NCBI GenBank assembly: GCA_900769075.1
Contig: CAAGFE010000111.1
Coordinates: 752-64,751 of the forward strand
Source of the DNA: Clostridia bacterium
GTDB taxonomy: Bacteria > Bacillota > Clostridia > Christensenellales > Aristaeellaceae
Length of the DNA stretch: 64,000 bases
Reading direction: 5' to 3'
Notes under the pieces: model-generated
Told to the model about the DNA's origin: nothing
Database searches by the model: none
What the model saw: only the letters and a program-made list of their open reading frames with translations
Program-made: the position numbers and the translations under genes
Part shown: positions 9,666 to 52,406 of the stretch, in pieces
Numbering within the stretch: the first letter of the stretch is position 1
Layout: every line of letters begins with the position of its first letter

Positions 9666-12503
9666 GTGAAGCGTATGCTGAAAATCTGGAGTTGCCTCTG
9701 TGTGCTGCTTCTGATTCTGCCGCTGCATGCGGCCGGTGAAAGCCTGACGCAGCTTTATCTGGAACGCTCAGATAAGAATGATTATGCTGCGTATCTTGCT
9801 TCCGTGGGCGAACCGGCGATCGTGACAGACAGCATGAAGCTCTATGAGGCCGAAGAAGGGACGCTGCTGGCCGAGGGTGAACAGCTGACCTTCCCAGTGT
9901 CCGTGGCGCAGAGCATCTTCGGTTATCCCGTGCTGACCTACGCCATGACCGGCAGCAACATCCTGGACAACGGCATTACCCTGATGGTGGACGGCAAGCT
10001 CCCCTATGCGGAGTGCAGCACCCTGACCCTTGACAGCCTGTGGACGCAGAGCGGGACATTCAATCTGGACCGCTACGGCAACGAGGTCGTGTCCATGCCG
10101 GTGAAGTCCCACGACATCACCTCCTGCCGGCTGATGGGCAAGGCCGGGATGTACGCCAAGGGCATGGGCCTGTACCTGACAGCGGGCGAGCACGAGATCA
10201 CCGTCATCTGCCGGGTAGGCCCCTTCCGGCTGTACAGCATGACGCTGGAAGGCGAGATTCCCGTTCTGCAGGCCGCCCAGGGCAAGCCCCAGGGCGAAGC
10301 CCTCATCACCCTGCAGGCCGAGCAGGTGCCGGTGCGCAACAACCCCAACATCCGCCCGCTGGCTGATTACGACATGCGCCTGACGCCTTACTCCAGCGGC
10401 AAGAAGGTCATCAATCATATTGACGATACTTCCTATAAGTATCCCGGCGATACGCTCACCTACACCTTCACCGTGGAGGAAGCCGGGTATTACGCCATGG
10501 CGCTGCGGCTGAGGCAGGGCGAGCTGGCAAACTTCCCGGTATACCGCACGGTGCTGATCGACGGCGTCATCCCCGGCCCCGCCTTTGAGAATGCCGAGCT
10601 TGGCTACACCCTGCAATTCCGGAATCAGACCCTGCTGGATGAAAACGGCAGCCCTGCCCTCCTGCACCTGACCGAGGGCGAGCATACCCTGACGCTGCTG
10701 ACCAGCGTGGATCCCCTTCGCCCTTCACTCCTGCTTTTGCAGACCATCTCCGACGAAATTGCGGATCTTTCCCTGCAGATCACCAAGATCACCGGCGGCA
10801 ATACGGATTTCTTCCGGGACTTCGCGCTGGAGGATTTTGATTTTCACATCGCGGATGACCTGACCCGCTGGATCGGCGAACTGACGGCTGTCCGGGCAGA
10901 GCTGGGCAGGATCGCCCATGCGGAGGGGCGCGTCGGTGCGCTGTCCAACCTGGACATGGCCATTCAGGCCCTGGAACAGCTTGCCACGGAACCGGATAAT
11001 CTGCCCAAGAAGCTGACCCTGTTTTCCCAGGGTTCCTCCTCCGCGCGGGGCTTCCTGGTCAGCACGGTGGAGAGCCTCTCCACCAGCCCCGTGGGGCTGG
11101 ACGCGATCTACCTCTATACAAAGGAAGAGCTCCTGCCCAAGGAGCCTAATTTCCTGGAGCGCGCAGCCGACACCGTCCGGCGCTTTGCGGCTTCCTTCAC
11201 CGATGACAGCTATGTGGCGGACAACGCCGACGAAAGCAAGCTCCAGGTGTGGGTGAACCGTCCCCGTCAGTACCTGGAAATCCTCCAGCGCATGGCGGAC
11301 ACCACCTTCACCCCCGCCACGGGCATTGAGGTCGAGTTCTCCATCATGCCCGATGAGAGCAAGCTCATCCTGGCCAATGCCTCCGGCACCGCGCCGGACG
11401 TGGCGCTGGGGGTCTCCACCACCCGCGTGTATGACCTGGCAGTCCGCGGCGCGCTGAAGAACCTGCGGGCGTATGAGGACTTCGCCGCGGTGGGCAAGTG
11501 GTTCCCCACGGGATTGCTGATGCCCGCTGTCTGCGACGACGGCCTGTACGCCCTGCCGGAAACCTTCAACTTCAATGTGCTCTTCTACCGCAAGGATATC
11601 CTGGATTCCATCGGGCTGGAGGTGCCCAACTCCTACGAGGAAGTGCTGCAGATGCTCCCCGCGCTCCACCGCTACGGCCTGAACTACAACAATTTCGTGG
11701 CCAATGCGGTGGGCTACAAGGCCTTCTCCATCACCACGCCCTTCCTGTACCAGAACGGCGCTGTGCTGTATGCGGACGGCAATCTCCACGTTCAGCTGGA
11801 CACGGAGGAAGCCATCGAAGCCCTCAAGGTGATGACGGATTCCTTCGTCATCTATGACATGGACTTTGAGGTCAACAGCTTCTACCAGAGCTTCCGCGAC
11901 GGTACGCTCCCCATCGGCACCTCCAATTACGGCATGTACAACCTGGTGATGAACGCCGCGCCGGAGCTGGCGGACAAGTGGGCCATCGCCCTCTACCCCG
12001 GATTGACGGACGAAAACGGTGAGGTGCAGCGCTGGATCTCCGGCGCGGAGCAGAGCTGCTTCATCTTCGACAGCACCAACATGCCCGAGGCCTCCTGGCA
12101 GTTCCTCTCCTGGTGGATGAGCGAGGAGATCCAGACGGAGTTCGCCTTTACCCTCCAGTCCACCCTGGGCAATGAATACATGTGGAACAGCGCCAATTCG
12201 GCCGCCTACATGAACGCGCCCTGGCCCACGGAGCACAAGAAGATCATTGCCGAGCAGATGAACTGGATCTACGAAACGCCCCGCAACCCCGGTTCCTACA
12301 TGGTGGAACGTGAGCTCTCCAACGCAGTCAACGCCGTGTGCCTGGAGGGCAAAAACCTCCGCGCGGCGCTGGATGAAGCGATCAAGCGCATTGACCGTGA
12401 GCTGGAGCGCAAGCTGGAGGAATTTGGCCGCATGAAGGATGGACAGCTGACCCAGCCCTTCATCGTGCCGGACATCAATACAGTGAAGGAGTGGCTGGAA
12501 TGA
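9666..12503 (+). CDS. Large secreted bipartite glycan-binding/solute-binding protein (module 1): signal peptide + two CBM-like beta-sandwich repeats + C-terminal family-1 extracellular solute-binding domain, 945 aa
   Basis: GTG start at 9666 with AGGGGG RBS. Signal peptide [19 protein letters not shown]. The N-terminal half has two tandem repeats ending in AGEHEITV and [10 protein letters not shown]. The C-terminal half ([14 protein letters not shown]...) is a clear paralog of the SBP domain of 39627-42551. Confidence 0.7.
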
Positions 12504-13408
12504 CCAAGGCTGTCAAAATGCGCGGCCCCAGGGATCAACACATTGCATGGGCATTCCTCGCTCCCTACATCCTGCTGTTCACGCTGTTCATCATCGTGCC
12601 GGTGGTGATCGCCATCGGGCTGTCCTTCACGAACTTCAACACCATCCAGGCGCCTGATTTCGTGGGCTTCATGAACTATGTGAACCTCCTGACCCGCGAC
12701 GCGATCTTCATGCAGTACGTCCTGCCCAACACGATCCTCTTCGCCATCATCGTGGGGCCCGGCGGATACCTGCTGTCGTTCTTCCTGGCCTGGTGTCTGA
12801 GCCAGATCACCAAGGGCCCGCGCACGGTGCTGGCGCTGCTGATCTACAGCCCCTCCATGACCTCCGGCGTGGCGATGAACGTCGTCTGGCGCATCATCTT
12901 CTCCGGCGATGAGCGCGGCTACCTGAACGCGCTGCTGCTGAATCTGGGCTGGATCTCAGAGCCCATTCAGTTCCTGCAGTCCACCCAGTACCTGATGCCG
13001 GTGATGATCATCGTGGCCCTGTGGTCCTCCATGGGCGTGGGCTTCCTGGCGATGCTGGCCGGCATGATGAACATTGATGAGAGCGTCTATGAAGCGGCGG
13101 AGATCGACGGATTGCGCAACCGCTTCCAGGAAGTGTTCTACATCACCATTCCCATGATGAAGCCCCAGATGCTCTTCGGCCTGGTGATGGCGGTGGTCAA
13201 CACCTTCCAGGTGGGCCACATCGGCGTGAGCCTGTCCGGCGCGAACCCCACGCCCCAGTACGCAGGTCAGCTGATCGTCAACCTGATCGAGGACTACGGC
13301 TTCATCCGCTACGAGATGGGCTACGCATCCGCTGCCTCCGTGGTGCTCCTCGTGCTGATCTACACCATCACCCGCTGGAGCGGCAAGATGTTCAAGGAAG
13401 ACGAATGA
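12500..13408 (+). CDS. CUT1 ABC transporter permease, MalF/UgpA-type (module 1), 302 aa
   Basis: Six TM segments and the EAAEIDG permease signature. ATG at 12500 overlaps the upstream stop as ATGA. Paralog of 42548-43432. Confidence 0.8.
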
Positions 13409-13421
13409 AAGGGAGAACGCC

Positions 13422-15443
13422 ATGCGCATCAAACGCATCCTGGTATTCCTGCTCTGTTTGGCGCTTCTGCCCCTGACTGCCCGGGCGGATGAGGCGCCCT
13501 ACTACACCCTGACTGAGATCTACTCCAGCGAGGCGGCTCACTCTCCCGCAGGCTACCTGCCGGAGGGGACTTACACCGAGTTTGACGGGAAGGCCCTCAA
13601 GCGCCCGGCGGACGTGTTTGTAGATGACGAGGATCATCTGTTCATCTCCGATGAAGGCAACAAGCGCGTGCTGATGTGCACGCTGGAGGGCGAGTGGATC
13701 CGCACCTTCGGCAGCAAGGACCTCAAGCAGCCCGGCGGCCTCTACGTCCGGGACGGGAAGCTCTATGTGGCGGACCTGAAGCTCCAGCAGGTTGTGGTCT
13801 ATGACGTCGCAACCGGTGAGCAGGTCTTTGCCCTGGTGCATCCCGGCACGCCGCTGTACGGTGTGAAGGCCAGATTTGAGCCGCTGAAGGTCGCCGTGGA
13901 TGCGGCGGGCAGCATGTATGTCATCTCCAAGGGCAACACCAACGGCATTGCCCAGTTTGCCGCAGACGGCACCTTCCTTGGTTACTTCGGTGCCAATGAT
14001 ACCCGTCTCAGCCTGGGCGAGATGCTCAAGCGCCTCACCTACACCGAGGAGCAGCTGGCCAAGCTCAAGCGGGTGATCCCTGCCACACCCACCAGCGTGG
14101 ATATGGACGGGCGCGGTCTGCTCTATACCGTCACCACCGGCGTCAGGGGCGTGAAGCGCCTGAACATGTCCGGCCTGAACATCATGGAACCCACCGGCTG
14201 GGGGCATGACAACACCATTGACGTGGCGGTGGGCGCTCAGGAGAACATCTTCGTCATCAACGAGCTGGGCTACATCATGGAGTACACCCGGGACGGGCGC
14301 TGCCTGTTCTACTTCGGCGGCCAGGATCAGGATCGTACCCGCACGGGCCTGTTCGTCAACACGGTCGCCATCGACGTGGATCAGTACGGCAATCTGTACG
14401 TCCTTGACCGCGACAAGGCGCTGGTGCAGCGCTTTGCCGTGACGGACTATGCAAACCTGGTTCACCGTGGTCTGGCCCTTTATCAGGAGGGCCGCTACGC
14501 CGAAAGCCGCGAGCCCTGGGAACAGGTGCTGGAGCTCAACGCCATGTTTGACTATGCCCACATGGGTCTGGGCCGGGCGTATTACAAGCTGGAAATGTAC
14601 GAGGAGGCCATGCGGGCCTCCCGCCGGGGCGGGGACAAGGAAGGCTACTCCGATTCCTTCTGGGAAGTCCGCAATGTCGTCCTCCAGGGCGGCATCATGT
14701 GGATGATCGGCGGCCTGCTCGCGCTTTTCCTCGTCAGAAAGCTCTGGAAGCTGCTCAAGGCCCGTGTGAAGCCCGTGCAGACCTGCTGCGCCAGGGTGCA
14801 TGCCATCTTCGATGTGAAGCTGCTGCACGAGCTGAAATTCATGACCTACTTCCTCCGCAATCCGGCGGATGCCTTCTACGGCGTGAAGCATGAGGGCAAG
14901 GTCAGCGTCCTGTCCGCGACGATCCTCTACATCGCGGTGATCGTGATCTACATCGTCAACAAGTATTTCTGCGGCTTCCTGTTCAAGTCCATCCCCGACG
15001 GGCAGTTCGAGGTTGGCGTGGATCTGGTGCTTCTCATCGGCGGCATTGCCCTGTTCCTGATCGCCTGCAACCTGATCTGCTCCATCCGTGACGGCGAGGG
15101 CACCTTCAAGCAGATGTACTGCTCCTTCGCCTACGCGCTGGGCCCGTATGTGATGCTGGGGCCCATCACCTTCGCGCTGTCCTTCGTGCTGACGTTCAAC
15201 GAGGCGTTCATCATCACCCTCATGGATGTTGTCACGCTTGGCCTGTGCCTGATGCTGGTGGTGATGATGGTCAAGTCGCTCCAGAACTACAGCTTCACCG
15301 AAACCTTCGCGGCGCTGCTGCTGACGCTGTTCACCATGCTGATGATCGTCATTGCACTGGTCATTGCGGCGGCCCTGGTGGCGCAGCTGTGGGAGTTCCT
15401 GACGGCCGTGTGGAAGGAGGCCCGATTCTACAATGAAGTGTAA
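13422..15443 (+). CDS. Signal peptide + NHL-repeat beta-propeller + TPR + C-terminal Yip1-family polytopic membrane domain protein (module 1), 673 aa
   Basis: MRIKRILVFLLCLALLPLTARA signal peptide. Repeated ...LYVAD/...MYVISKGNTNGI... NHL blades. TPR-like ALYQEGRYAESREPWEQVLELNAMFDYAHMGLGRAYYKLEMYEEAM. Five C-terminal TM helices with the Yip1-like LRNPADAFYG motif. Paralog of 44328-46364. Confidence 0.7.
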   Translation: MRIKRILVFLLCLALLPLTARADEAPYYTLTEIYSSEAAHSPAGYLPEGTYTEFDGKALKRPADVFVDDEDHLFISDEGNKRVLMCTLEGEWIRTFGSKDLKQPGGLYVRDGKLYVADLKLQQVVVYDVATGEQVFALVHPGTPLYGVKARFEPLKVAVDAAGSMYVISKGNTNGIAQFAADGTFLGYFGANDTRLSLGEMLKRLTYTEEQLAKLKRVIPATPTSVDMDGRGLLYTVTTGVRGVKRLNMSGLNIMEPTGWGHDNTIDVAVGAQENIFVINELGYIMEYTRDGRCLFYFGGQDQDRTRTGLFVNTVAIDVDQYGNLYVLDRDKALVQRFAVTDYANLVHRGLALYQEGRYAESREPWEQVLELNAMFDYAHMGLGRAYYKLEMYEEAMRASRRGGDKEGYSDSFWEVRNVVLQGGIMWMIGGLLALFLVRKLWKLLKARVKPVQTCCARVHAIFDVKLLHELKFMTYFLRNPADAFYGVKHEGKVSVLSATILYIAVIVIYIVNKYFCGFLFKSIPDGQFEVGVDLVLLIGGIALFLIACNLICSIRDGEGTFKQMYCSFAYALGPYVMLGPITFALSFVLTFNEAFIITLMDVVTLGLCLMLVVMMVKSLQNYSFTETFAALLLTLFTMLMIVIALVIAAALVAQLWEFLTAVWKEARFYNEV

Positions 15444-17589
15444 ATGGCTGATCCTCCTGGCCCTGCTGCTGCTGCTGCTGCCGGCCCTTGCCCTGGCGGA
15501 CACGCATACGGTGGAAAACGAGCGCCTCCTCCTGACCATTGACGACGCCACCCTGTACATGACCGTCACCGACAAGGCCACCGGCAAGCACTTTGCAAGC
15601 AGCATCGAACCGGATTCCGGCAAGCTCACGGGATGGAAAGCCTTCGTGGCGTCCCCCCTGGTGCTGGATGTGGTGGACGGTCAGTCCGTCATCACCAAGC
15701 AGCAGGCGCTGATGGGCAATCAGGTCGCCATTGATTTCACGCTCCTGGCTAACGGCGCGGATGCACGGGTGGACTTCACCGCCCTGGGCGTGAGGATCAA
15801 GCTGGAGATCCGGCTGGACGAGGATTCCGTGGCCATCACCATGCCCAAGGACGGTCTGGAGGAATATCCGGTCTCCAAGGGCGTGGATAAGAACACCGGC
15901 GCGGAGAGCTTCACCGATACCCGCGTGTGCGGCGTGTACCTGCTTCCCTGCTTCGGTGCGACGGAGCTGGACGAGAAGTCGGGCTACATGCTGGTGCCGG
16001 AAGCGGCGGGGGCGCTCATCGCCTTCTCCAATGGCCGGGGCGTGGGCAACACCCCCTTCAGCAAGCGCATCTACGGCACGAACATCGGCGTGGACAAGTC
16101 GGTCATGACGGCTTTGAACCGCCCTGCCGAGCAGATCACCATGCCGGTTTACGGCATGGCGTATACCGATGAGGGGCTGGGCTACCTGGCCGTGGTGGAG
16201 AATGGCTCCGAAGCCGCCGAGATCATGGCCTACCCCGCCGGCGTCATCACCAATTACAACTGGGCGGCCGCGCACTTCACCCTGCGCGAGCAGTTCATCG
16301 CCCAGACCACCCGCACCCTGGGCCTCAACAGCCGCGAAAGCAAGCCCTACCTGCGGGACATGACCGTGCGCTTCTACATTCTCTCCGGCGAAGATGCAAG
16401 CTACACCGGCATGGCCCAACGCTACCGCAGAGCCCTGCAGGAAAGCGGCGGGCTCAACGCCGCGGATACCGCCTATCGCCCCCGCGTGGATTTTCTGGGG
16501 GCCGAAAGCGCGGAGTTCCTGCTGTGGAACAGCGTGGAGCCCATGACCACCGTGGCGCAGATGGGGGAGATCATCGCAAGCTGCGATGAGAGCGGCGTCA
16601 GCGATCCGCTGGTGATCTACCGGGGCTGGCAGCCCGGCGGCCTGACCTGGGCGCTCGGCAGCGGAAGCGTGGAGCTGGAGCGCAAACTGGGCAAAGCGGA
16701 TGACCTGATCGCCCTGGCCCGGTCTGTCAGGGAAAGCGGCGGAAAGTTCATGCTGGAGATCGACCCGGTGCAGGCCAATCCCAACCGTGTGTACAACAAT
16801 CGGGTGGATGTGGTGCGCACCATCGGCCAGACCATCGCTGAGCATCAGACCGGCAAGGAGCTTTTCCCGACCATGTACTACCTCACGCCCAGCCGTTCAA
16901 GCGAGATTCTCCAGGCGATTTCGGACAAATGGGGCGGGCATGTGGACGGCCTGGCGCTGGTCACGCTGCCCAACACCCTGTTCTCCTATTACGCCCGCGG
17001 CGGCAATCACTCCCGCGGCGACACGCTGGCCGCCTATCAGGACATGCTGGCAAACACCAACGCGGTGCTTGCCCTGCAGAACCCCCTCAGCGGCTACCTG
17101 GAGCAGACGGATGTGTTCCTCGATCTGCCCCTGGATACCACCAGCTATTCCTTCCTGTCGGCGGAGGTGCCCTTCCTGCCCATGGTGCTCAGCGGGAGCA
17201 TCCCCTACTATTCCACCTGGCTGAACTTCGAGAGCAACCAGCACAAGGCGCTGCTCAAGCTGGTGGAGTACGGCGCCTATCCCTCCTGGCTGCTGACCGG
17301 TGAGGACGTGCAGCCCCTGATCCACACCAACTCCTCCGATGTGTTCTCCGCCAAATGGGACGTGCTGCTGCCCACGATGGCGGACATCAACGCCCGGCTG
17401 CAGGCCCTGCACGAGGCCATCGGCGGAAGCCGCATGATCAAGCATGAGCTGCTGGCGTCCGACGTCGTCAAGGTGACCTACGAAAACGGGACGCTGGTAT
17501 ACGTCAACTACCGCAAGGCGGAGGCCGCCATCGACGGCGTGAGCATTCCGGCCCTGGACTACCTGGTGAAAGGAGGCGATGCGCGATGA
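15433..17589 (+). CDS. Secreted protein of unknown function (module 1), 718 aa; N-terminal beta-rich region + putative (beta/alpha)-barrel-like core; DUF-type, possibly glycoside-hydrolase-like
   Basis: Signal peptide MKCKWLILLALLLLLLPALALA. Conserved blocks shared with 46348-48915 (PVYGMAYTDEG / PVFGMVHTDSE; IYRGWQPGGLT / TYRGWQKNGLT; FLPMVLSGSIPYY / FLTIALSGQIPYY). Start overlaps the upstream stop by 11 nt. Confidence 0.6.
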   Translation: MKCKWLILLALLLLLLPALALADTHTVENERLLLTIDDATLYMTVTDKATGKHFASSIEPDSGKLTGWKAFVASPLVLDVVDGQSVITKQQALMGNQVAIDFTLLANGADARVDFTALGVRIKLEIRLDEDSVAITMPKDGLEEYPVSKGVDKNTGAESFTDTRVCGVYLLPCFGATELDEKSGYMLVPEAAGALIAFSNGRGVGNTPFSKRIYGTNIGVDKSVMTALNRPAEQITMPVYGMAYTDEGLGYLAVVENGSEAAEIMAYPAGVITNYNWAAAHFTLREQFIAQTTRTLGLNSRESKPYLRDMTVRFYILSGEDASYTGMAQRYRRALQESGGLNAADTAYRPRVDFLGAESAEFLLWNSVEPMTTVAQMGEIIASCDESGVSDPLVIYRGWQPGGLTWALGSGSVELERKLGKADDLIALARSVRESGGKFMLEIDPVQANPNRVYNNRVDVVRTIGQTIAEHQTGKELFPTMYYLTPSRSSEILQAISDKWGGHVDGLALVTLPNTLFSYYARGGNHSRGDTLAAYQDMLANTNAVLALQNPLSGYLEQTDVFLDLPLDTTSYSFLSAEVPFLPMVLSGSIPYYSTWLNFESNQHKALLKLVEYGAYPSWLLTGEDVQPLIHTNSSDVFSAKWDVLLPTMADINARLQALHEAIGGSRMIKHELLASDVVKVTYENGTLVYVNYRKAEAAIDGVSIPALDYLVKGGDAR

Positions 17590-19518: not shown

Positions 19519-19609
19519 GTGCGCTCGGATTCAACACGGTATCCATACAGGCAAGCGGTGCGTCGCAGGGCCTGTACACGGTATAAATCATGAAAGGAGA
19601 CTCCAACGT

Positions 19610-42551: not shown

Positions 42552-43432
42552 TCACCAGCAAGAAAACGCCGTATCTGTTCCTGCTGCCCTATCTGCTGCT
42601 GTTTACGGTGTTCATCATCATCCCCGTGGGCATGGCGGTGATCCTGTCCTTCACCAACTACAACGCCGTGCAGACGCCCCAGTTTGTCGGCCTGACCAAC
42701 TACATCAACCTGTTCACCCAGGATACCATCTTCCTGCAGTATGTGCTGCCCAACACGCTGGTGTTCTCCATCATCGTGGGCGTGGGCGGCTACATCCTCA
42801 GCTTCGCGCTGGCCTGGTCCCTCAGCCAGGTGCCCAAGGCGCCCCGCACCGTGCTGGCGCTGATCCTCTACTCGCCCTCCATGACCGCCGGCGTGGCCAT
42901 GAGCGTGGTGTGGCGCACGGTGTTCCTGGGCAACCAGAGCGGCATCGCCAACTATGTGCTGACCTCCCTAGGCATCATCAACGAGCCCATCCTGTGGCTG
43001 TCCAACGCCACCTACATCATGCCCATCGTCATCATCGTGGCGCTGTGGTCCTCCATGGGCGTGGGCTTCCTGGCGATGCTGGCAGGTCTGCTGAACGTCA
43101 GCCCCGAGCTGTATGAGGCCGGCGCCATCGACGGCATCAAGAACCGCTTCCAGGAGGTCATCTACATCACGGTTCCCTCCATGAAGCCCCAGATGCTCTT
43201 CGGCGCGGTCATGGCGGTCACCAGCGCCTTCCAGCAGGGCTCCATCGGCGTGATGCTGACCGGCTCCAACCCCACCCCGTCCTACGCGGCCCAGCTGATG
43301 GTCAACCACGTGGAGGACTACGGCTTCATCCGCTATGAGATGGGCTACGCAGCTGCGGTTTCCGTGGTGCTGCTGGGCCTGATCTACGCGTTCTCCTTCG
43401 TGGCCCGCAAGCTCTTTGAAGAAAAGGATTAA
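42548..43432 (+). CDS. CUT1 ABC transporter permease, MalF-type (module 2), 294 aa
   Basis: ATGA overlap with the upstream stop. EAGAIDG permease loop. Paralog of 12500-13408. Confidence 0.8.
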
Positions 43433-43448
43433 GAAAGGAGGGAATCCC

Positions 43449-44315: not shown

Positions 44316-44327
44316 AGGAGGATCGAG

Positions 44328-46364
44328 ATGAAGAAATATGCAGCCTGGCTGCTCCTGATCCTTCTGGCGTTTACCGGTCTGACCGCGCAGGCCGCTACAC
44401 CCTACCGCACCTATACCCAGGGCACCGACCGGGATCTGGTGGAAACCCAGACCGCCTACGAGCCCATCCGCACCATGATCCGCTTCGGGGATGAAACCCT
44501 CAAGATGCCCCAAGATATGCGCATGGGCCCCGATGGGTACCTCTACATTGCCGACAACGGCAACAAGCGCATCCTCGTCATTGATACGGAGGGCAACTTC
44601 ATCCGCGAAATCGTGGACAAGAAGAACATGAAGAGCCCCATGGGCGTGTTCGTGGACGATGACCTCAACGTCTACGTCGCGGACGACAAGGCCCGGGCGG
44701 TGCTGGTGTATGACAAGGACGGCAAGTTCGTCATGGAATACACCAAGCCGACCCACCAGCTCTTCGGTGACACCGCGCCCTATGTGCCCCAGAAGATCGT
44801 GCTGGACAAGCGCGGCAACCTCTACATCGTCTCCAAGGGCAACACCAACGGCATCGTCCAGATCAGCCCGGTGGGCGGCGGCGAGTTCCTGGGCTACTAC
44901 GGCGCGAACGCCTCCCGCATCTCCTTCCTGACCCGCATCCGCCGCGTCATCTTCGGCGAAAACTCCGCCGCGGTGGGCGACATCGTCCCGATTTCCGTCA
45001 AGAACCTGACCATCGACCAGAAGGGCATGGTCTACACCGTCACCGAGGCCGCGGACGAAAGCTCCCTGCGCCGTCTGAACGTGGCGGGCAAGTCCACCAT
45101 GACGCCTGAATGGTGGATCGAGCTGAACAGCGCGGTGGCGGTCAATTCCTCCAACTCCATCTTCACCGCCAACGCCAACGGCTTCATCATGGAGTACACC
45201 TCCGAGGGCGATCTGCTCTTCCTCTTCGGCGCCAACGACGCCCAGAGCGAGCAGCGCATCGGCATGTTCAAGTCCGTCACCGGATTGGTGGTCACCGATG
45301 ATTACACCATCTACGTCCTGGACGCGAACCTGAACAGCATTCAGGTGCTCAAGCCCACCGAGTTCACCGACCTGGTGCATCAGGCGTTCACCCTGTTCCA
45401 GCAGGGCAAGTACGCCGAGTCGAAGGTGCCGTGGACGGAGGTTCTGCGCATGAACTCCCTGTTCACCTACGCCTCCACCGGCCTGGGCGAAGCGCTTTAC
45501 CGCGAGGGCAACTACGAGGAGGCCATGGAGGCCTTCCGCAACGGCGGCTACCGCCAGGGCTATTCCGACGCCTGGTGGGAGCAGCGCTCCAACCTGCTGC
45601 ACACCAACATGTCCACCGTGATCTATGTCGCCGTGGCGGTGATCGTGCTGTGGGTGGTCATCAAGCAGCTGGACAAGCGGTTCCACATCCTCAATCCCCT
45701 TCGCTTTGTGGGCCGCAGGATCGGTTCCGTCAAGCTGGTCAGCCAGGTGGGCTGGAGCACCATGATGCTCCGGAACCCCTACGACGCCTGCTACGGCATC
45801 AAGCGGGAAAAGCGGGCGAGCTGGCTGAGCGCCGTCATCGTGCTGCTGGCCTTCTTCGTGCTGTATGTGGCGAACAAGTACTTCGCGGGCTTCCTGTTCA
45901 AATCCATGCCCGATGGGTATTACGAGCTGATCAACGACTTCCTGATCGTCTTTGGCCTGTTCCTGCTGCTGACGATCTGCTGCTACCTGGTCTGCACCAT
46001 CACCGACGGCGAGGCGCGCTTCCGGGATATCTTCATCAGCGCCGCCTACGCGCTCATCCCGATGATCGTGTTCCTGCCCATCCGCCTGGTGCTGACCAAC
46101 GTGCTGACCTATAATGAAGAATTCTTCATTACGCTGATTGACTTTGTGTCCATCGGCTGGACGGCGCTGCTGATCGTCCTGATGCTGATGTACCAGAATG
46201 ACTATACCCTCAAGCAGACCCTCAAGACCATCTTCCTGACGCTGTTCTGCGTGCTGGTGGTGGTGGCGCTGATGGTTGTGCTGTACATGCTGATCAGCCA
46301 GCTGGTGGACTTCGTTGTGTCCATCTACGGAGAGGTGGTGTATCGCTTTGTTAAGAAGGTTTAA
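44328..46364 (+). CDS. Signal peptide + NHL-repeat beta-propeller + TPR + Yip1-family polytopic membrane domain protein (module 2), 678 aa
   Basis: MKKYAAWLLLILLAFTGLTAQA. DGYLYIADNGNKRILVID... NHL blades. LFQQGKYAESKVPWTEVLRMNSLFTYASTGLGEALYREGNYEEAM (TPR). LRNPYDACYG Yip1 motif plus five TM helices. Confidence 0.7.
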   Translation: MKKYAAWLLLILLAFTGLTAQAATPYRTYTQGTDRDLVETQTAYEPIRTMIRFGDETLKMPQDMRMGPDGYLYIADNGNKRILVIDTEGNFIREIVDKKNMKSPMGVFVDDDLNVYVADDKARAVLVYDKDGKFVMEYTKPTHQLFGDTAPYVPQKIVLDKRGNLYIVSKGNTNGIVQISPVGGGEFLGYYGANASRISFLTRIRRVIFGENSAAVGDIVPISVKNLTIDQKGMVYTVTEAADESSLRRLNVAGKSTMTPEWWIELNSAVAVNSSNSIFTANANGFIMEYTSEGDLLFLFGANDAQSEQRIGMFKSVTGLVVTDDYTIYVLDANLNSIQVLKPTEFTDLVHQAFTLFQQGKYAESKVPWTEVLRMNSLFTYASTGLGEALYREGNYEEAMEAFRNGGYRQGYSDAWWEQRSNLLHTNMSTVIYVAVAVIVLWVVIKQLDKRFHILNPLRFVGRRIGSVKLVSQVGWSTMMLRNPYDACYGIKREKRASWLSAVIVLLAFFVLYVANKYFAGFLFKSMPDGYYELINDFLIVFGLFLLLTICCYLVCTITDGEARFRDIFISAAYALIPMIVFLPIRLVLTNVLTYNEEFFITLIDFVSIGWTALLIVLMLMYQNDYTLKQTLKTIFLTLFCVLVVVALMVVLYMLISQLVDFVVSIYGEVVYRFVKKV

Positions 46365-48915
46365 TCAGAAGCTGCTCTCCCTGGTGCTTGCGGCGATGAT
46401 GCTCCTGGGCTGCCTGCCCGCGCTGGCGGAGGATGCGGCGGCCTCGAACATCCCCGAGGGGTACAAGCTGGTGGCGGAAAACAGCGGCTTCCGGCTGTAT
46501 CTGCTGGAGAGCACCATGGCGGTCATCGTCCAGAGCAAGGCGAACGGACATCTGCTCTACTCCACCGTGCAGAACGCCGATACCGGCAACAAGACCTGGA
46601 AGGGCTTCTACCAGTCCGGCATCGTCATCGAGTACCTCGAGGACGTGAAGGACAAGCCCATTCAGGCGGATTTCATCAACAATGCCTCGACCATCGCCTA
46701 CGAGTATGGGGACAACGGCTTCCTTGCCCATGTGGCCTACACCGATCTGGGCATCTCCTTCGATGTGAAGGTGTGGATGGACGAGGAAGGCATGCATGTG
46801 TATCTGCCCACCGATTCCATCGTGGAGGTCAAGGATCAGACCTACATGATCGTCAAAAATGACCAGGGTGGGGAAGAACGCATCGACACGACCAAGTACA
46901 CCAAGACCTCCGAGGAGAGTGAATTCCTGCTCACCGCCGCGGACGGCACGGTGTATACCCTCAGCAAATCCTGCTATGTATCCACCAAGGACAATACCGT
47001 GACGGTCAAGGATCAGGCGGGCATCACCCAGGTGACGCTCCCCCTGGCCAAGCCGCTGGACAAGGCCTTTGACGTGTCCGTCATCAACGCCGCCGGAAAG
47101 ACCGTGCTGATTCCTGCGGAATCCGTCACGGCGGTGCAGAAGAATCTCTACACCACCGGCACGGCGCAGGACGGCTCCGCCCTGCGCATCCCCAAGGAGA
47201 ACGTGGTGGAGATCAGCGAGTATTCCTACACCATCGCCAGCATCTATGTGTATCCCTTCATGGGGCACAGCCGGGCGGGCGAGGGCCAGGGCTACATGAT
47301 CATCCCCGACGGCCAGGGCGCGGTGGTCGGCTTTGAGGACAACGAGGGCCGCTATCCCACCCCCTTCGACAAGCAGGTGTACGGCGTGAACATCGGCGTG
47401 GAGGATCAGTACCTCTCCGAGGATCGCGTGCCCGCGGAGGACGTGATCATGCCCGTCTTCGGCATGGTGCATACGGACTCCGAGATCGCCGTGCTGAGCG
47501 TGATTGAGCAGGGCGACCTGGCCGCCCGCATCCAGGCTTACCCCAACGGCGTGCGCAACCTGCCCTTTGACTGGGTGACGGCGAAATTCACCCTTCGCTT
47601 CGTGTTCAACCAGCCCATGGGCCCCAGCGCCGGCAACGTCGCCACCCGTACCGAGAAGCGCCGCGATGTGGACATCCTGCAGCATTTCCTCTTCCGCAGC
47701 GGCGAGGAAGCCGACTATGCGGGCCTGGCGGTGGCGTACCGCAACTACCTGATCGCCAACGATACCTTCGCCCAGGCGGATCGGCGCGATTTCGACATCC
47801 AGATTGATTTCCTGGGCATTGAGCGCGAGAATTACATCCTGGGCAAGCAGGACGTGGTGATGACCAGCTTCGACCAGGCCGCCGGCATCCTGGATGACCT
47901 GACGGAGGCCGGCGTCAAGGCCATGAACGTGACCTACCGTGGCTGGCAGAAGAACGGTCTGACCGGCGGCGTGCCCACGGACAGCTTCGATGTGGCGAAG
48001 TCCCTGGGCGGCAAGTCCGGCCTGATGGCACTCGCCCGGAAGGCAGCGGACATGGGCGTTCCCTTCGCCCTGGAAGCGGATGTGCTGAGCCTGAACACGG
48101 AAACCCATCCTTCGCTGGTGTTCTCCGCGCTCAAGAAGATCACCGCCCAGACCTGGTCCCGCGCCACCTACGGCAAGGTCTACGAAACCCTGTACTACTG
48201 CAACCCGACCACGTCCGAGAGCGCAGCGGCATCGCTGACCTCCGCCATGGTCAAGGAGGGCCTGACCGGCATCTCCTTCACCGGCATCACCCAGGTGCTG
48301 ACCGATTACTGCCACAAGGACAAATACCACGACACCAGCGAGATGGCGGCGATCTATACCGGCATTCTGGACCGGGCGAACGATCATCTGACCACCGCCC
48401 TGGTCAGCCCCAACGCCTATCTGTGGCAGTACGCCGATGTGATCACCGATATCCCCGCCGCCGGCAGCGATTACACCTATACCGATGCGGAGATTCCCTT
48501 CCTGACCATCGCGCTGAGCGGGCAGATCCCCTACTACCTGGAGTACACCAACTTCCAGGCCAACACCCGGGAGTTCTTCCTGCACCTGGTGGAGCAGGGC
48601 GCGCGCCCGTCCTTCCTGCTGACCTGGGAGGATCCCATCGAGCTCCAGAACACCAACTCCTCCTCCATCTACTCCTCCCGGTATGAGCTGTACAGGGACA
48701 TGGTGGTCGAATGGTACAGGGATCTGTCCGAGGTGTACCAGGCCGTGGGCGAGGATGGCATGATCGTGGATCACGTCCGCCAGGGCGACCTGGTTCGGGT
48801 CACCTGGAGCAACGGCACGCAGATCTACCTCAACTTCGGCGACAGGGCCGGCGAGATGGACGGCATTGCCCTGGAAAAAATGAGCTTTAAGGTGGTGAAC
48901 GGCAATGGCAATTAA
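46348..48915 (+). CDS. Secreted protein of unknown function (module 2), paralog of 15433-17589, about 855 aa (start uncertain: TTG 46348, alternatives TTG 46315 or ATG 46393)
   Basis: Signal peptide LLRRFNQKLLSLVLAAMMLLGCLPALA. Conserved blocks shared with the module-1 protein. Carries an extra N-terminal beta-rich region of about 140 aa. Confidence 0.55.
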   Translation: MLRRFNQKLLSLVLAAMMLLGCLPALAEDAAASNIPEGYKLVAENSGFRLYLLESTMAVIVQSKANGHLLYSTVQNADTGNKTWKGFYQSGIVIEYLEDVKDKPIQADFINNASTIAYEYGDNGFLAHVAYTDLGISFDVKVWMDEEGMHVYLPTDSIVEVKDQTYMIVKNDQGGEERIDTTKYTKTSEESEFLLTAADGTVYTLSKSCYVSTKDNTVTVKDQAGITQVTLPLAKPLDKAFDVSVINAAGKTVLIPAESVTAVQKNLYTTGTAQDGSALRIPKENVVEISEYSYTIASIYVYPFMGHSRAGEGQGYMIIPDGQGAVVGFEDNEGRYPTPFDKQVYGVNIGVEDQYLSEDRVPAEDVIMPVFGMVHTDSEIAVLSVIEQGDLAARIQAYPNGVRNLPFDWVTAKFTLRFVFNQPMGPSAGNVATRTEKRRDVDILQHFLFRSGEEADYAGLAVAYRNYLIANDTFAQADRRDFDIQIDFLGIERENYILGKQDVVMTSFDQAAGILDDLTEAGVKAMNVTYRGWQKNGLTGGVPTDSFDVAKSLGGKSGLMALARKAADMGVPFALEADVLSLNTETHPSLVFSALKKITAQTWSRATYGKVYETLYYCNPTTSESAAASLTSAMVKEGLTGISFTGITQVLTDYCHKDKYHDTSEMAAIYTGILDRANDHLTTALVSPNAYLWQYADVITDIPAAGSDYTYTDAEIPFLTIALSGQIPYYLEYTNFQANTREFFLHLVEQGARPSFLLTWEDPIELQNTNSSSIYSSRYELYRDMVVEWYRDLSEVYQAVGEDGMIVDHVRQGDLVRVTWSNGTQIYLNFGDRAGEMDGIALEKMSFKVVNGNGN

Positions 48916-49894
48916 GAAAAAAGCAAAGGCAGAGCAGGAAATCGCCATCACGCCGAAGAAACCTAATAAGCGTGAAAAGAACCCGCACGATAAGCACAGA
49001 ATCACAAAGCGCAAGCTCCGCGACTGGATGTATGGCTACATCTTCCTCGCCCCGTGGATTATCGGCATCCTCTTCTTCTTCGTCTGGGCCATGGGGCAGT
49101 CGCTGAACTATTCCGTACACAAGATCGTCATGGACAACGGCGTGCAGACCTACCCGCTGGAACACTGGTATGACAACTATGCCGCCGTGTTCTCGCTGGA
49201 GACCAATCTGCCGACCACCCTGGGCTCCTTTGCAATCTCCCTGGTGCTGCAGGTGCCGATCATCATCGCGTTCTCGCTGATCATCGCCATGCTGCTCAAC
49301 AGCAAGATCCGCTGCCGCGGCCTGTTCCGCATGATCTTCTTCCTGCCGGTGATCATCGCTACCGGCCCGGTGATGAACATGCTGACCGCCCAGGGCGCCG
49401 CGTCGGTGCCCATGATGTCCGATGGCAGCTTGCTGAATCTGCTCTCCGGGCTGCCCCAATTCCTGCTGGAACCCATCACCGAGCTGTTCAACAGCCTGAT
49501 CCTGATCCTGTGGAATTCCGGCATCCAGATCCTGATCTTCCTGTCCGGCTTGCAGAAGGTGTCCACCACCATGTATGAGGCCGCGAAGATTGACGGCGCC
49601 AGCGGCTGGGAGACCTTCTGGAAGATCACCCTGCCCACGGTGAAGCCCATCATCCTGCTCAACGCCATCTACACCGTGGTGTCCCTGGCCACCGGCGGCA
49701 CGAACGAAATCATCGAGCTGATCTACGCGGCCACCTATACCACCCCCTGGACGAAGGGGTACAGCTACGGCATGGCCTTCTCCTGGATTTACACCGCCAT
49801 CATCGGCGTGATTCTGATCGGCGTGTTCCTGCTGCTCAAGGAAAAGAGCGACAAAAAAGTCAAGTACGAGAAGAAACTCGTTACGCTGCGCTAA
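48905..49894 (+). CDS. CUT1 ABC transporter permease, MalF-type (second transporter of module 2), 329 aa
   Basis: Long basic N-terminal tail, six TM segments, EAAKIDGASGW loop. Confidence 0.8.
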   Translation: MAIKKKAKAEQEIAITPKKPNKREKNPHDKHRITKRKLRDWMYGYIFLAPWIIGILFFFVWAMGQSLNYSVHKIVMDNGVQTYPLEHWYDNYAAVFSLETNLPTTLGSFAISLVLQVPIIIAFSLIIAMLLNSKIRCRGLFRMIFFLPVIIATGPVMNMLTAQGAASVPMMSDGSLLNLLSGLPQFLLEPITELFNSLILILWNSGIQILIFLSGLQKVSTTMYEAAKIDGASGWETFWKITLPTVKPIILLNAIYTVVSLATGGTNEIIELIYAATYTTPWTKGYSYGMAFSWIYTAIIGVILIGVFLLLKEKSDKKVKYEKKLVTLR

Positions 49895-49909
49895 GGAGGG
49901 GGAAAGACA

Positions 49910-50884
49910 ATGAAAATCAGACAACTCCCCAAGGATGCGCGCAAGGATTACTACAAGAAAATTCTCTTTGGCAACAACGACCGCCGCGGTGCGATCATGA
50001 CCTTCGTGGTCTATCTGCTGCTGATCACCATTGCCTTCATCTACCTGTACCCGGTGCTGTACATGTTCTCCCGCTCGCTGATGGGCAAGTCCGACCTGCT
50101 GGATTCCTCTGCCAAGTGGATCCCTTCCTCCATCACCCTGAGCAACTACACCCAGGCCATCGACACGATGGATTACTGGCACTCCCTGTGGAAGAACCTC
50201 ATCATCGCCGTGTCCGCCACATTGTGCCAGGTGTTTGTCACCTCCTGGGTCGGCTACGGCTTTGCGCGGTATAACTTCCCGGGCAAGATGCTCTGGATGG
50301 TGCTGCTGATCCTGTCGTTCCTGCTGCCCGCCCAGACCATCGCGGTGCCCAACTTCCTGCTGTTCAACAAGTGGCACCTGATTGACGGCTCGGTCAAGCC
50401 CTTCATCATCACCGCCGTTTCCGGCCAGGGCATCAAGAGCTGCCTGTGTATCCTGATCTTCTACAACTTCCATCGTCAGACGCCCCAGAGCCTGATTGAA
50501 GCGGCGGAAATCGACGGCGCGGGCCACATCAAGGCCTACTTCCGCATTGCGGTGCCGCTGTGCTCCGCGGCCATCGTGGTGGTGGCGCTGTTCTCCTTCG
50601 TGTGGTACTGGAACGAGGTGGACATCGTCCGCACCTACCTGGGATCGAGCAACACCCGCGACAAGGGCCTGACGACCCTGATGCTGGAGCTGAACAAGTT
50701 CGAGGACAGCTACAACGCGGTCTACGCCACCCACGCCCAGTCCACCACGTCCACCAACCGCCTGAACGACGCCATCAAGATGGCGGGCACGATGCTCGCC
50801 GTGGCCCCGATGATGATTCTGTACATGTTCCTGCAGAAGCAGTTCGTGGAATCCATCGACCGGGCCGGCATCACCGGCGAGTAA
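49910..50884 (+). CDS. CUT1 ABC transporter permease, MalG-type (second transporter of module 2), 324 aa
   Basis: IEAAEIDGAGH loop. GGAGGGGGAAAG RBS. Confidence 0.8.
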   Translation: MKIRQLPKDARKDYYKKILFGNNDRRGAIMTFVVYLLLITIAFIYLYPVLYMFSRSLMGKSDLLDSSAKWIPSSITLSNYTQAIDTMDYWHSLWKNLIIAVSATLCQVFVTSWVGYGFARYNFPGKMLWMVLLILSFLLPAQTIAVPNFLLFNKWHLIDGSVKPFIITAVSGQGIKSCLCILIFYNFHRQTPQSLIEAAEIDGAGHIKAYFRIAVPLCSAAIVVVALFSFVWYWNEVDIVRTYLGSSNTRDKGLTTLMLELNKFEDSYNAVYATHAQSTTSTNRLNDAIKMAGTMLAVAPMMILYMFLQKQFVESIDRAGITGE

Positions 50885-50975
50885 TCCCCTGCCCCGGATG
50901 CGCCGGGGAGGACATCCCATTCCCATGCATCAAAGCCTGGTCAGAGGCTTTAGATAAAAAAAGGAGGACACCCCA

Positions 50976-52406
50976 ATGAAAAAGCTGGTTTCCCTGGTTC
51001 TGGCGCTGTGCATGGTGCTGTCCCTGGGCTCCTTTGCGAGCGCAGAGGGCGAGTACAACATTCCCGCCATGAACACCACCGATCCCATCACCCTGTCCGT
51101 CATGATCTGGGACGACTTCGAGATGGCCGAAGCGCTGGCCGCTTCCTTCTCGGAGATGTATCCCAACATCACCGTTGAAATCATCCGCACCACCACCGGT
51201 ACCGTGACTGCGGATCTGACCAACTACGCCGCCAACGGCTCCCTGCCGGACATCTTCATGTGGCTGGATCTGGATCCCCTGCTCGCCGCTCCCTACATGG
51301 CCGATATCGCGCCCTACCTGGAGAACGACGAGGAAGCCCAGACCAAGCTGTACTACACCATCCGCAACGCCGGCTACATTGACGGCGAGCGCTGCTTCTT
51401 CCTGGCTGGCGAGTTCCTGCCCGCAACCGTTTATCTGGACATGAACGTGTTCGAGATGCTGAACGTCGAAATGCCCGGTCAGGACTGGACCTGGGATCAG
51501 TTCGTTGAGCTGACCCAGACCATGACCGATCCCACCCAGGGCATCTGGTCCTACACCAACGGCATGTACGCCCCCGTCACCTGCGGCCCCATCGCGCTGA
51601 CCGAGAACTCCATCGGCGAATTCGGCTGGAACGGCGAGAGCTACAACTTCGAGTCCGGCTGGGCCGAGTCCCTCGAGCTCCAGCTGGAGAACATCCGCCT
51701 GGGCAACACCTGCGTGGGCGGCTCCGATGCTTACCTGGCGGTTGACCCCTCCAACGAGTGGCCCGGCCAGACCGGTCATGTGGCTGTCCTGACCGACGCC
51801 TCCTGGACCCTGAACAACATCTACACCCAGCCCCTGGCACTGGATCGCGGCATCAAGATGGTGCCCTACAATCCTCCGGTGGGCGCCGAGAACTGCGGCC
51901 AGCTGGGCTTCCTGGACAATGTGTCCATCTCCGCTCAGTGCGAGCATCCCCGTGAGGCCTATGAGCTGATGAAGTACATGTTCTGGGGCAAGGATGGCTG
52001 GATGAAGCGCTGCGAGCTGTTCCCCACCCTGGTGTGGGAAGGCACCGACCAGAAGGCCTACAATGTGCCCAACTGCTTCCCCCTGATCCAGGACGACGAG
52101 CTGAACGAGGCCTTCGCCGCGCTGCTGCCTGACCTGGGCTACTGGAATGACTGGACCGGCTTCCTGGAGAACATCCAGAACCCCGTCACCTGGGGCGCCC
52201 GTACCATCCCCGGCTTCAACGCCTTCCTGGCCAATGCCTACAGCGGCGGCGACTTCAACGGCACCATCGGCATCGAGGCCGCTGTGTCCAATGGCTCCGC
52301 GGATCCCTGGGATTACACGGATTGGCTGGCTGAGCAGGGCCGTTACTACTACGACCAGGCCATGTCCGCCTTCTATGACATCTACGGCAGGCCCGACGCG
52401 GAGTAA
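50976..52406 (+). CDS. Extracellular solute-binding protein, family 1 (second transporter of module 2), 476 aa
   Basis: MKKLVSLVLALCMVLSLGSFASAEG signal. AAAGGAGG RBS. Confidence 0.75.
   Translation: MKKLVSLVLALCMVLSLGSFASAEGEYNIPAMNTTDPITLSVMIWDDFEMAEALAASFSEMYPNITVEIIRTTTGTVTADLTNYAANGSLPDIFMWLDLDPLLAAPYMADIAPYLENDEEAQTKLYYTIRNAGYIDGERCFFLAGEFLPATVYLDMNVFEMLNVEMPGQDWTWDQFVELTQTMTDPTQGIWSYTNGMYAPVTCGPIALTENSIGEFGWNGESYNFESGWAESLELQLENIRLGNTCVGGSDAYLAVDPSNEWPGQTGHVAVLTDASWTLNNIYTQPLALDRGIKMVPYNPPVGAENCGQLGFLDNVSISAQCEHPREAYELMKYMFWGKDGWMKRCELFPTLVWEGTDQKAYNVPNCFPLIQDDELNEAFAALLPDLGYWNDWTGFLENIQNPVTWGARTIPGFNAFLANAYSGGDFNGTIGIEAAVSNGSADPWDYTDWLAEQGRYYYDQAMSAFYDIYGRPDAE

Follow-up and report, generated by a model that had tools for sequence, protein, structure and literature searches.

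A 64,000-nucleotide stretch of DNA from a Clostridia bacterium of the family Aristaeellaceae (contig CAAGFE010000111.1 of assembly GCA_900769075.1, positions 752 to 64,751), referred to below as the window, carries two clusters of eight genes each on the plus strand, module A (9666-21949) and module B (39627-52406). Each cluster encodes two ATP-binding cassette (ABC)-type sugar importers and, between their permease genes, two proteins of other kinds: a membrane protein that combines NHL, TPR and Yip1 domains, and a member of the family DUF5696. Apart from their substrate-binding protein (SBP), sugar ABC importers of the SBP-dependent type are thought to need no more than a pair of permeases and an ATPase. 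In the window, two of them enclose a polytopic Yip1 protein with a large putative ectodomain and a protein with a predicted GH129 fold (GH, glycoside hydrolase). The genes of each module are numbered in the order in which they occur, A1 to A8 and B1 to B8 (Table 1).

Table 1. Genes of the two modules, followed by other features of the window (aa, amino acids; identities from BLASTP)
Feature	Position in window	Strand	Basis
A1, giant SBP, 945 aa	9666-12503	+	Pfam SBP_bac_8/SBP_bac_1; AlphaFold2 model; Foldseek
A2, MalF-type permease of transporter 1, 305 aa	12491-13408	+	Pfam BPD_transp_1; 65% identity to B2
A3, NHL-TPR-Yip1 membrane protein, 673 aa	13422-15443	+	Pfam NHL, TPR_11, Yip1; hydropathy; 38% identity to B4
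A4, DUF5696 protein, 718 aa, signal peptide, predicted GH129-like three-domain fold	15433-17589	+	Pfam PF18952; 32% identity to B5
A5, MalF-type permease of transporter 2, 324 aa	17586-18560	+	Pfam BPD_transp_1; 41% identity to B6
A6, MalG-type permease of transporter 2, 322 aa	18550-19518	+	Pfam BPD_transp_1; 40% identity to B7
A7, ordinary-size SBP, 447 aa	19610-20953	+	Pfam SBP_bac_1/8; 34% identity to B8
A8, MalG-type permease of transporter 1, 287 aa, displaced to the end of module A	21086-21949	+	62% identity to B3
B1, giant SBP, 974 aa	39627-42551	+	39% identity to A1 over ~875 residues; weak CBM_35 at residues 252-281
B2, MalF-type permease of transporter 1	42548-43432	+	Pfam BPD_transp_1
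B3, MalG-type permease of transporter 1	43416-44315	+	Pfam BPD_transp_1
B4, NHL-TPR-Yip1 membrane protein, 678 aa	44328-46364	+	Pfam NHL, Yip1, TPR; transmembrane pattern as A3
B5, DUF5696 protein, ~855 aa	46348-48915	+	Pfam PF18952, E 5e-148
B6, MalF-type permease of transporter 2	48905-49894	+	Pfam BPD_transp_1
B7, MalG-type permease of transporter 2	49910-50884	+	Pfam BPD_transp_1
B8, ordinary-size SBP, 476 aa	50976-52406	+	Pfam SBP_bac_1
Promoter-like site ~50 nt upstream of A1, TTGCCA-17-TAAAAT with TG	9587-9615	+	Consensus scan, 10/12 matches; weak evidence
Promoter-like site upstream of the GH43 gene preceding module B	38061-38090	+	11/12 matches
Intrinsic-terminator-like hairpin directly after B8, 11-bp stem, 9 GC pairs, T-run	52439-52464	+	Strongest such site in the region
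Glycosidase block 3' of module A: GH43, GH43-CBM6, 321-aa ArsR-type helix-turn-helix (HTH) protein, GH2, GH43	21982-31584	+	Pfam
Glycosidase block 3' of module B: two GH51 arabinofuranosidases and GH10 xylanase	52566-57642	+	Pfam

Two paralogous modules

The G+C content of the window is ~61%, and real reading frames were told by a third-position G+C content of 0.8-0.9; for the module genes, this value is 0.83-0.85 where computed. An earlier note on this DNA, written from the sequence alone, described two paralogous eight-gene modules with tight or overlapping gene junctions, and proposed that they be aligned. Pfam assignments and reciprocal BLASTP bear out the paralogy: all eight A proteins pair with one B protein each, at 32-65% identity. 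Conservation is highest in the permeases of transporter 1 (65% and 62%) and lowest in the DUF5696 proteins (32%). The junctions are as tight as described, in that neighbouring genes overlap by 4-17 nt or are 12-15 nt apart; the exceptions are gaps of 91 nt before the small SBP genes and of 132 nt before A8. In both copies, the Yip1 and DUF5696 genes overlap at their stop and start codons, as do the DUF5696 and MalF2 genes. The gene-for-gene correspondence therefore stands, but strict colinearity does not: the MalG-type partner of A2 is A8, which follows the small SBP gene, whereas B3 directly follows B2. NCBIfam offered nothing specific for any cassette protein.

The duplication is old, because similarity between the modules at the DNA level persists only in patches of 65-75% identity. 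A recent duplication is ruled out by this patchiness together with the 32-65% protein identity. When its own orthologue (locus L030) is set aside, all eight proteins of module B find their best matches within the module-A clade, in a sample skewed towards relatives of A4. Independent acquisition of the two modules is not favoured by these matches, and descent of both copies in this genome from a single ancestral cassette is the rather more probable course.

Two importers without an ATPase gene

Each module encodes four BPD_transp_1 permeases, which fall into two distinct pairs, and two SBPs, i.e., the components of two CUT1-type importers. Cluster-type sugar SBP domains were recognized in the C-terminal half of A1 and in A7 (SBP_bac_1/8), and in B8 (SBP_bac_1). 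No ABC ATPase is encoded in either module, and the sole ABC_tran protein found in the window (58614-59357, minus strand) adjoins a SufBD gene. In the CUT1 family, a shared ATPase encoded elsewhere is usual. In this respect, the modules are like the CUT1 importers of Gram-positive bacteria that share an MsmK/MsmX ATPase, with MalF/MalG-like permeases and no ATPase gene in the operon; they differ in that a tandem of two importers encloses two non-transporter genes in a fixed arrangement. Among related cassettes (see below), that of Paenibacillus has a UgpC-type ATPase gene directly upstream, and ATPase homologues lie upstream of the cassette in ~8 metagenome loci.

The giant SBP

In A1, the Pfam SBP_bac_8/SBP_bac_1 domain is confined to residues 539-827 (~540-830). 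An AlphaFold2 model of the protein, with a predicted local distance difference test score (pLDDT) of 89.2 and a predicted template modelling score (pTM) of 0.84, shows a signal peptide followed by two beta-sandwiches (residues ~55-195 and 213-347); after these come a helical bundle (349-471) and a complete SBP (477-945). Foldseek matches the model to proteins that bind beta-1,2-gluco-, cycloisomalto-, malto- and cello-oligosaccharides (E ~1e-19). The C-terminal half, like the small SBPs, is thus of the same type as the oligosaccharide SBPs Lin1841 (5ysb) and CbpB (7x0i). By contrast, the N-terminal extension of ~500 residues, made up of two beta-sandwiches resembling carbohydrate-binding modules (CBMs) and the helical bundle, is not part of the type known from CUT1 importers. 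The fold search with A1 did not identify these N-terminal domains, as the SBP half dominates every match. Weak, sub-threshold CBM_35 matches occur in 12 of 31 giant-SBP homologues, and Golvesin_C and GH115_C matches are likewise sub-threshold; with moderate confidence, we regard the two sandwiches as probably CBM6/35-like. B1 gave no Pfam SBP match at E <= 0.01 and only the weak CBM_35 match; its assignment as an SBP comes from the alignment with A1, which spans the SBP half.

A database protein, P0121, has 945 residues and is 100% identical to A1, in keeping with a start of A1 at 9666; the nearest named relative, at 97% identity, is from an Aristaeellaceae metagenome-assembled genome (MAG). 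A longer open reading frame (ORF) from a TTG at 9111 (1130 aa; the extension covers 9111-9665) is probably spurious. Within this extension lie a terminator-like hairpin with a 15-bp stem (9334-9366) and the promoter-like site upstream of A1.

The NHL-TPR-Yip1 protein

A3 and B4 both match Yip1 (PF04893) above its gathering cut-off of 28.6 bits, with scores of 39.1 and 35.7 bits. Their hydropathy profiles show a signal peptide, one transmembrane (TM) segment after the TPR region and five TM peaks in the Yip1 domain (in A3, peaks at residues 1-19, 419-437, 494-512, 535-553, 572-590, 596-614 and 636-654). From this pattern, the propeller and the TPR region would sit outside the cell. In searches of the PDB by sequence, the NHL domain of A3 matches PknD-sensor-type propellers and designed "Pizza" proteins, whose propellers derive from that of PknD (E 1e-10 to 1e-19); it is closest to the extracellular sensor propeller of the Mycobacterium tuberculosis kinase PknD (1rwi, E 1e-10).

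The NHL-TPR and Yip1 parts are not always one protein. They are fused in 41 of 53 metagenome loci and encoded by separate genes in the other 12, and in Butyrivibrio fibrisolvens the break between the NHL-TPR-TM gene and the YIP1 gene falls right after the first TM segment. Since the same two halves occur fused or split in this way, they appear to work together. Literature searches joining Yip1 with SBP or permease found nothing relevant.

The DUF5696 protein

Both A4 and B5 are full-length matches to PF18952, whose gathering score is 25.6 bits (A4, 489.4 bits, profile positions 3-612, E 2e-146; B5, 494.8 bits). B5 most likely starts at the TTG codon at 46348, behind a GGAGAGG Shine-Dalgarno sequence read from the DNA. 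It has a possible lipoprotein signal (MLRRFNQKLLSLVLAAMMLLG-C) with a lipobox-like LLG-C, and the alignment places an insertion of ~110 residues in its N-terminal domain. What had been described earlier as a secreted protein of unknown kind can therefore be named, and secretion agrees with the signal peptide of A4. The family is large: at E <= 0.001 it has 5,115 representatives of clusters formed at 50% identity, and at E <= 1e-30 there are 3,004; our literature searches found no mention of DUF5696 or PF18952.

A structural model of DUF5696 computed from 22 sequences (pLDDT 79.6, pTM 0.85) predicts a three-domain GH129-type fold, with an N-terminal beta-sandwich, a TIM (beta/alpha)8 barrel and, at the C terminus, an immunoglobulin-like domain or beta-sandwich. 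The first two Foldseek matches are of GH129 type, namely DagB (5opq, E 1.8e-34) and NagBb (5wzn, E 9e-26); GH101, GH36, GH31 and GH97 rank after them. The full three-domain architecture has been described for DagB (PMC5698469). By sequence, the profile of the DUF5696 family finds DagB weakly, and only in the 70-80 residues at its N and C termini (E 7e-5 to 1e-4). Because the fold matches agree with a profile match to both ends of DagB, DUF5696 is predicted to be a remote relative of GH129-type alpha-glycosidases with the same three-domain architecture.

The distance from characterized GH129 enzymes is considerable. Identity to NagBb, an alpha-N-acetylgalactosaminidase (5wzn), and to DagB/ZgGH129, a 3,6-anhydro-D-galactosidase (5opq, 8rzk), is only 13-16%, and their substrates (N-acetylgalactosamine of mucin, carrageenan) do not suit this locus. 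Pfam places the window proteins in DUF5696 rather than in a GH family, and no GH family reached significance in the Pfam search with A4 and B5. With a predicted GH129-like glycosidase fold, DUF5696 is more probably an enzyme that works next to the transporters than one of their subunits.

Conservation of the gene set

Related loci were collected in three ways. A scan of reference genomes gave 16 loci, in Clostridia MAGs, with DUF5696 proteins of 50-85% identity. Two plasmid records with the cassette came from a tblastn search; they belong to Paenibacillus cellulosilyticus (class Bacilli) and Butyrivibrio fibrisolvens (Lachnospiraceae), with ~25% identity in DUF5696. Lastly, metagenomes were scanned with a diverse alignment, and of the at least 565 relatives obtained the best 80 were analysed (24-85% identity); neighbours were scored by the coordinates of hits to hidden Markov models built from four known cassettes, and the counts below are among loci with enough flank.

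The core order giant SBP-MalF-MalG-[NHL-TPR-Yip1]-DUF5696-MalF-MalG was found in essentially every relative examined. The Yip1 gene is the closest upstream cassette gene to DUF5696 in 16/16 genome loci and 66/66 metagenome loci, and NHL-TPR lies ahead of Yip1 in 15/15 and 53/53, respectively. Downstream of DUF5696, MalF2-MalG2 follow in all 16 genome loci and in 67 of 68 metagenome loci, the exception being a contig that ends early. The giant SBP, MalF1 and MalG1 are present in all 42 metagenome loci counted, 39 of them with the canonical order. In two loci (L066, L072), the giant-SBP unit comes after the other unit instead of before it, and one (L096) reads NHL-Yip1-DUF5696-MalF2-MalG2-SBP, a giant-SBP unit being absent from the ~5.6 kb upstream and the 6.7 kb downstream. 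The small SBP is found at either end of the cassette. All 16 genome loci have the arrangement of module A as far as their contigs reach, and the displaced position of A8 is kept in all 14 orthologous genome loci that reach far enough. The invariant core is therefore the set of NHL-TPR-Yip1, DUF5696, MalF2 and MalG2, which are never apart or reordered in 96 loci with protein identities down to ~25%; the giant-SBP transporter is an almost constant partner. The named carriers found are all Bacillota: Paenibacillus, Gracilibacillus, Streptohalobacillus, Butyrivibrio and rumen or gut Clostridia, among them MAGs, with Turicibacter for the giant SBP.

The earlier note had argued from co-duplication and tight junctions that the two accessory genes are functional subunits of the transport system. 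They are indeed no passengers: in every related locus with enough flank they lie between both permease pairs, and all orthologous loci have them, such that the absence named in the note as speaking against its case was not observed. Functional linkage of the accessory genes with the importers is strongly supported; for DUF5696, the further step to a transporter subunit is the less likely reading, given the predicted glycosidase fold.

In some metagenome loci, stop-to-stop ORFs are much longer, e.g., 1400 aa for DUF5696 or 1420 and 1551 aa for the giant SBP, and in one MalF2 and MalG2 are apparently fused (L058, 7868-12067; L066, 13531-18183; L069, giant SBP of 1420 aa; L054, MalF2 plus MalG2 in a 628-aa ORF). 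These may be extra domains, true fusions or artefacts of stop-to-stop ORF calling.

Comparison with known systems

The Sus-like utilisomes of Bacteroidota combine SusCD with surface glycan-binding proteins and glycosidases. As in the loci described here, capture, surface trimming and import are encoded together, and the glycosidase set is swapped between loci. Unlike them, the present loci have no SusC/SusD and no outer membrane is involved; the components are unrelated in sequence and fold. No SusC or SusD domain was found among the 41 window proteins scanned.

A much closer counterpart is the xylan degradation locus of Caldicellulosiruptor (Anaerocellum) bescii, which opens with the operon xloEFG-X-GH129-axoFGE (Athe_0174-0181) (PMC8579813). 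Its annotated order, which is also that of Csac_2419-2412, agrees with module B in every position and with the canonical order of 39 of 42 metagenome loci: an SBP comes first, then two permeases, an "NHL repeat-containing protein" and an exported "putative GH129", and finally two more permeases and a second SBP. As in module B, genes for GH43 and GH10 enzymes come after the cassette, and the gene in the position equivalent to DUF5696, Athe_0178, is annotated "GH129" (PMC8579813). The statement that such an arrangement had not been described was thus too strong, and the arrangement is, by annotation, part of a biotechnologically important locus. In the published work on C. bescii, only the transporters have names; the NHL gene is called "X", no role is discussed for it or for the GH129-like gene, and wider conservation is not addressed. 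Unlike C. bescii, the window carries the cassette twice, in diverged copies, and in one of these a MalG gene has moved.

Expression of the C. bescii genes speaks to the coregulation of the accessory genes with the transporters. All eight genes are induced on xylan and Avicel (PMC8579813), and they form one unit controlled by XynR/AraR (PMC8579813, PMC12285236). On xylan versus cellobiose, mean log2 values are +6.7 for XloE, +4.4 for Athe_0177 and +4.0 for Athe_0178, with columns paired to substrates as we read them; the positional equivalents of the NHL-TPR-Yip1 and DUF5696 genes are hence induced ~16-21-fold along with the transporter genes (PMC8579813, supplement). A XynR operator upstream of Athe_0174 has been confirmed in vitro, with a Kd of 161 nM, and the locus is present in 11 Caldicellulosiruptorales genomes (PMC12285236). 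The same locus of C. saccharolyticus is responsive to xylan (PMC5658599). As in the modules, no ATPase gene is part of the cassette; MsmK is encoded elsewhere (PMC8579813, PMC12285236).

A precedent for a Yip1-family protein working with an ABC transporter, correctly cited in the earlier note, is YknW of Bacillus subtilis, which is encoded with its transporter and needed to modulate the assembly of that transporter (PMC4887032). We treat it as an analogy only, because its transporter is a MacB-type exporter (YknYZ) with the membrane fusion protein YknX. The modules encode SBP-dependent CUT1 importers, with BPD_transp_1 rather than MacB/FtsX domains and no membrane fusion protein, and YknW has no NHL or TPR ectodomain, unlike A3 and B4.

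A proposed cassette for capture, trimming and import

Taken together, these features make it somewhat probable that each module is one copy of a conserved "double-importer" cassette of Bacillota, devoted to the capture, trimming and import of oligosaccharides. The extracellular glycosidases of the locus (GH43, GH51 and GH10) would cut arabinoxylan or arabinan to oligosaccharides. The giant SBP would take the longer or decorated oligosaccharides with the help of its CBM-like domains and pass them to permease pair 1. DUF5696, as an (alpha-)glycosidase or a glycan-binding derivative at the cell surface, would strip or hold a decoration, and the products would be imported by permease pair 2 through the small SBP. 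The NHL-TPR-Yip1 protein would hold the giant SBP and DUF5696 near both permease dimers, or govern their assembly, and a shared MsmK/MsmX/UgpC-type ATPase encoded elsewhere would provide ATP hydrolysis. The two copies in the window presumably serve different arabinoxylan- or arabinan-derived oligosaccharides. The idea of a tether comes from the general lack of lipoprotein anchors on the giant SBP and DUF5696, and it draws some small support from the Paenibacillus and Butyrivibrio cassettes, in which canonical lipoboxes mark the small SBPs but neither the giant SBP nor DUF5696, whose signal or anchor sequences are plain ones. A physical complex of the cassette proteins is plausible.

The cassette is an insufficiently recognized variant of the ABC-based glycan utilization loci of Gram-positive bacteria, with two conserved accessory proteins. 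If both of these are needed for uptake, Gram-positive polysaccharide utilization loci would have to be read differently, DUF5696 would gain a function and possibly a CAZy family, and those who engineer lignocellulose degraders would gain two overlooked genes. Genetically tractable hosts carry the cassette, and the question is therefore directly testable.

Several points weigh against this proposal. First, the two halves of the cassette are separable, as the locus without a nearby giant-SBP unit indicates. Second, the more divergent DUF5696 members lie beyond the best 80 of the at least 565 metagenome matches. Third, the C. bescii genes are presumed homologous to those of the window by annotation and gene order, rather than by sequence comparison. 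Fourth, contacts between the proteins are putative, and B5 is possibly itself a lipoprotein, which weakens the need for a tether in that copy. Fifth, catalysis by DUF5696 is putative. At positions 217 and 519 (A4 numbering), Asp is found in 50 and 47, respectively, of 64 non-redundant relatives, but A4 has Asn and Tyr; B5 and its orthologue share N217 and have lost R528; and the catalytic residues of DagB (D202, D486, E517, E531) and NagBb (D435/E478) could not be mapped onto DUF5696, since the profile-PDB alignments cover the termini only.

One alternative is that there is no dedicated complex. Each module would then encode two ordinary, independent CUT1 importers and an extracellular glycosidase, and the NHL-TPR-Yip1 protein would have a separate role, e.g., in general membrane-protein assembly or quality control. 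Each component could plausibly function on its own, the giant-SBP unit may be missing or may follow the other unit, the small SBP shifts between the cassette ends, and the C. bescii literature handles XloEFG and AxoFGE as two separate transporters (PMC8579813). However, the invariance of the four-gene core at ~25% identity and among changed neighbours, together with the overlapping stop and start codons on both sides of DUF5696 in both window copies, is a rigidity unusual for genes that are merely coregulated. We therefore consider this alternative doubtful. Equally tentative is the most ambitious version of the cassette proposal, in which a Gram-positive "utilisome" has the NHL-TPR-Yip1 protein as its hub in the membrane. 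The propeller and TPR ectodomain of this protein would dock the anchor-less giant CBM-SBP and the GH129-fold protein, and its Yip1 domain would contact both permease dimers, such that capture, trimming and import of one complex oligosaccharide take place in a single assembly. If true, this would define a new class of accessory subunit for type-I ABC importers, and a bacterial Yip1 ectodomain fusion would for the first time have a function assigned to it.

A further alternative concerns DUF5696 itself, which may be a catalytically dead GH129-fold protein that binds glycans at the surface, or acts as a receptor, and feeds the importers, a role like that of the SusE/F-type proteins of Bacteroidetes. 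Few acidic residues of the barrel are conserved across the 64 non-redundant members, the substitution at position 217 is common to both window proteins, N217 and Y519 are common to the whole orthologous clade of A4, and the absence of a significant Pfam GH family for A4 and B5 points the same way. Nonetheless, most members retain the best-conserved polar positions (D/E190, D217, D519, R528, N598 and E612), and the A4 clade keeps other invariant acids (D444, D560, D564 and E578). Moreover, DagB and NagBb have just one catalytic residue in common (PMC5698469), so a shifted catalytic apparatus has a precedent in the GH129 fold. On balance, a dead DUF5696 seems unlikely.

Least likely, and in our view improbable, is that the NHL-TPR-Yip1 protein is a sensor or gate whose propeller detects an extracellular poly- or oligosaccharide, as in PknD, and switches importer activity or assembly through the Yip1 domain: the similarity to the PknD propeller and the example of YknW (PMC4887032) favour it, but the protein has no cytoplasmic output domain, its propeller has no known ligand, and the loci already carry conventional regulators of their own (LacI, AraC, a two-component system or an ArsR-type HTH protein).

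Neighbouring genes and regulatory signals

The core of the cassette is kept while the neighbouring glycosidases vary, and the cassette thus behaves as a reusable uptake module joined to differing degradative gene sets. The glycosidase block after module A is separated from it, and its genes from one another, by gaps of 6-65 nt, so module A and the block may form one transcription unit; orthologous loci have the same GH43/HTH/GH2 block behind the cassette. Ahead of module B are a GH27 gene on the opposite strand and a GH43 gene (38155-39630) that overlaps B1 by 4 nt, and the orthologue of module B (L030) has the same GH27/GH43-cassette-GH51-GH51-GH10 context. GH43, GH51 and GH10 neighbours are confined to close relatives of modules A and B. 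Distant cassettes adjoin genes for GH144-like "Glycoamylase", Lmo2446-like GH31, GH30, sulfatase and CBM6/35-rich proteins, and LacI/AraC regulators. The role in arabinan or xylan use suggested earlier consequently holds for this clade alone, and arabinoxylan specificity was rejected as a property of the cassette as such.

Scans of the region for promoters and terminators gave site totals not above shuffled expectation; the individually strong sites are listed in Table 1. For the module genes, a terminator-like site follows only B8.

The neighbours of the cassette on the P. cellulosilyticus plasmid (L017) are an odd setting for a glycan importer. There are no glycosidases among them; genes for four LLM-class flavin-dependent oxidoreductases, an NADPH-dependent oxidoreductase and two lipoprotein SBPs (16171-25394) follow the cassette.

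Within the GH43/GH2 block after module A, the 321-aa protein (26597-27562, plus strand) has an N-terminal ArsR/HTH_20 domain and ~240 C-terminal residues without assignment. A homologue occupies the same position in nine orthologous loci, and the protein is a candidate local regulator of module A and the glycosidases. The three GH43 proteins of the block (21982-24258, 24265-26580 and 29398-31584; 728-771 aa) have C-terminal regions of ~450 residues with no Pfam match bar one weak CBM_6.

Upstream of module A are a 307-aa protein without a Pfam match (5815-6738, minus strand) and two short coiled-coil proteins with sub-threshold Crescentin-rod-type matches (7353-7826 and 7857-8585, plus strand). 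Between the modules (31744-36388) lie unrelated genes for SIMPL (DUF541) and DUF4349 proteins and an extracytoplasmic function (ECF) sigma factor on the minus strand, followed by HtpG (Hsp90) on the plus strand. Beyond the glycosidase block of module B, all on the minus strand and unrelated to the cassette, are genes for SufBD and a SufC-like ABC ATPase (57697-59357), and for a GH13 alpha-amylase-family protein and a glycogen/maltodextrin phosphorylase (59568-63941).

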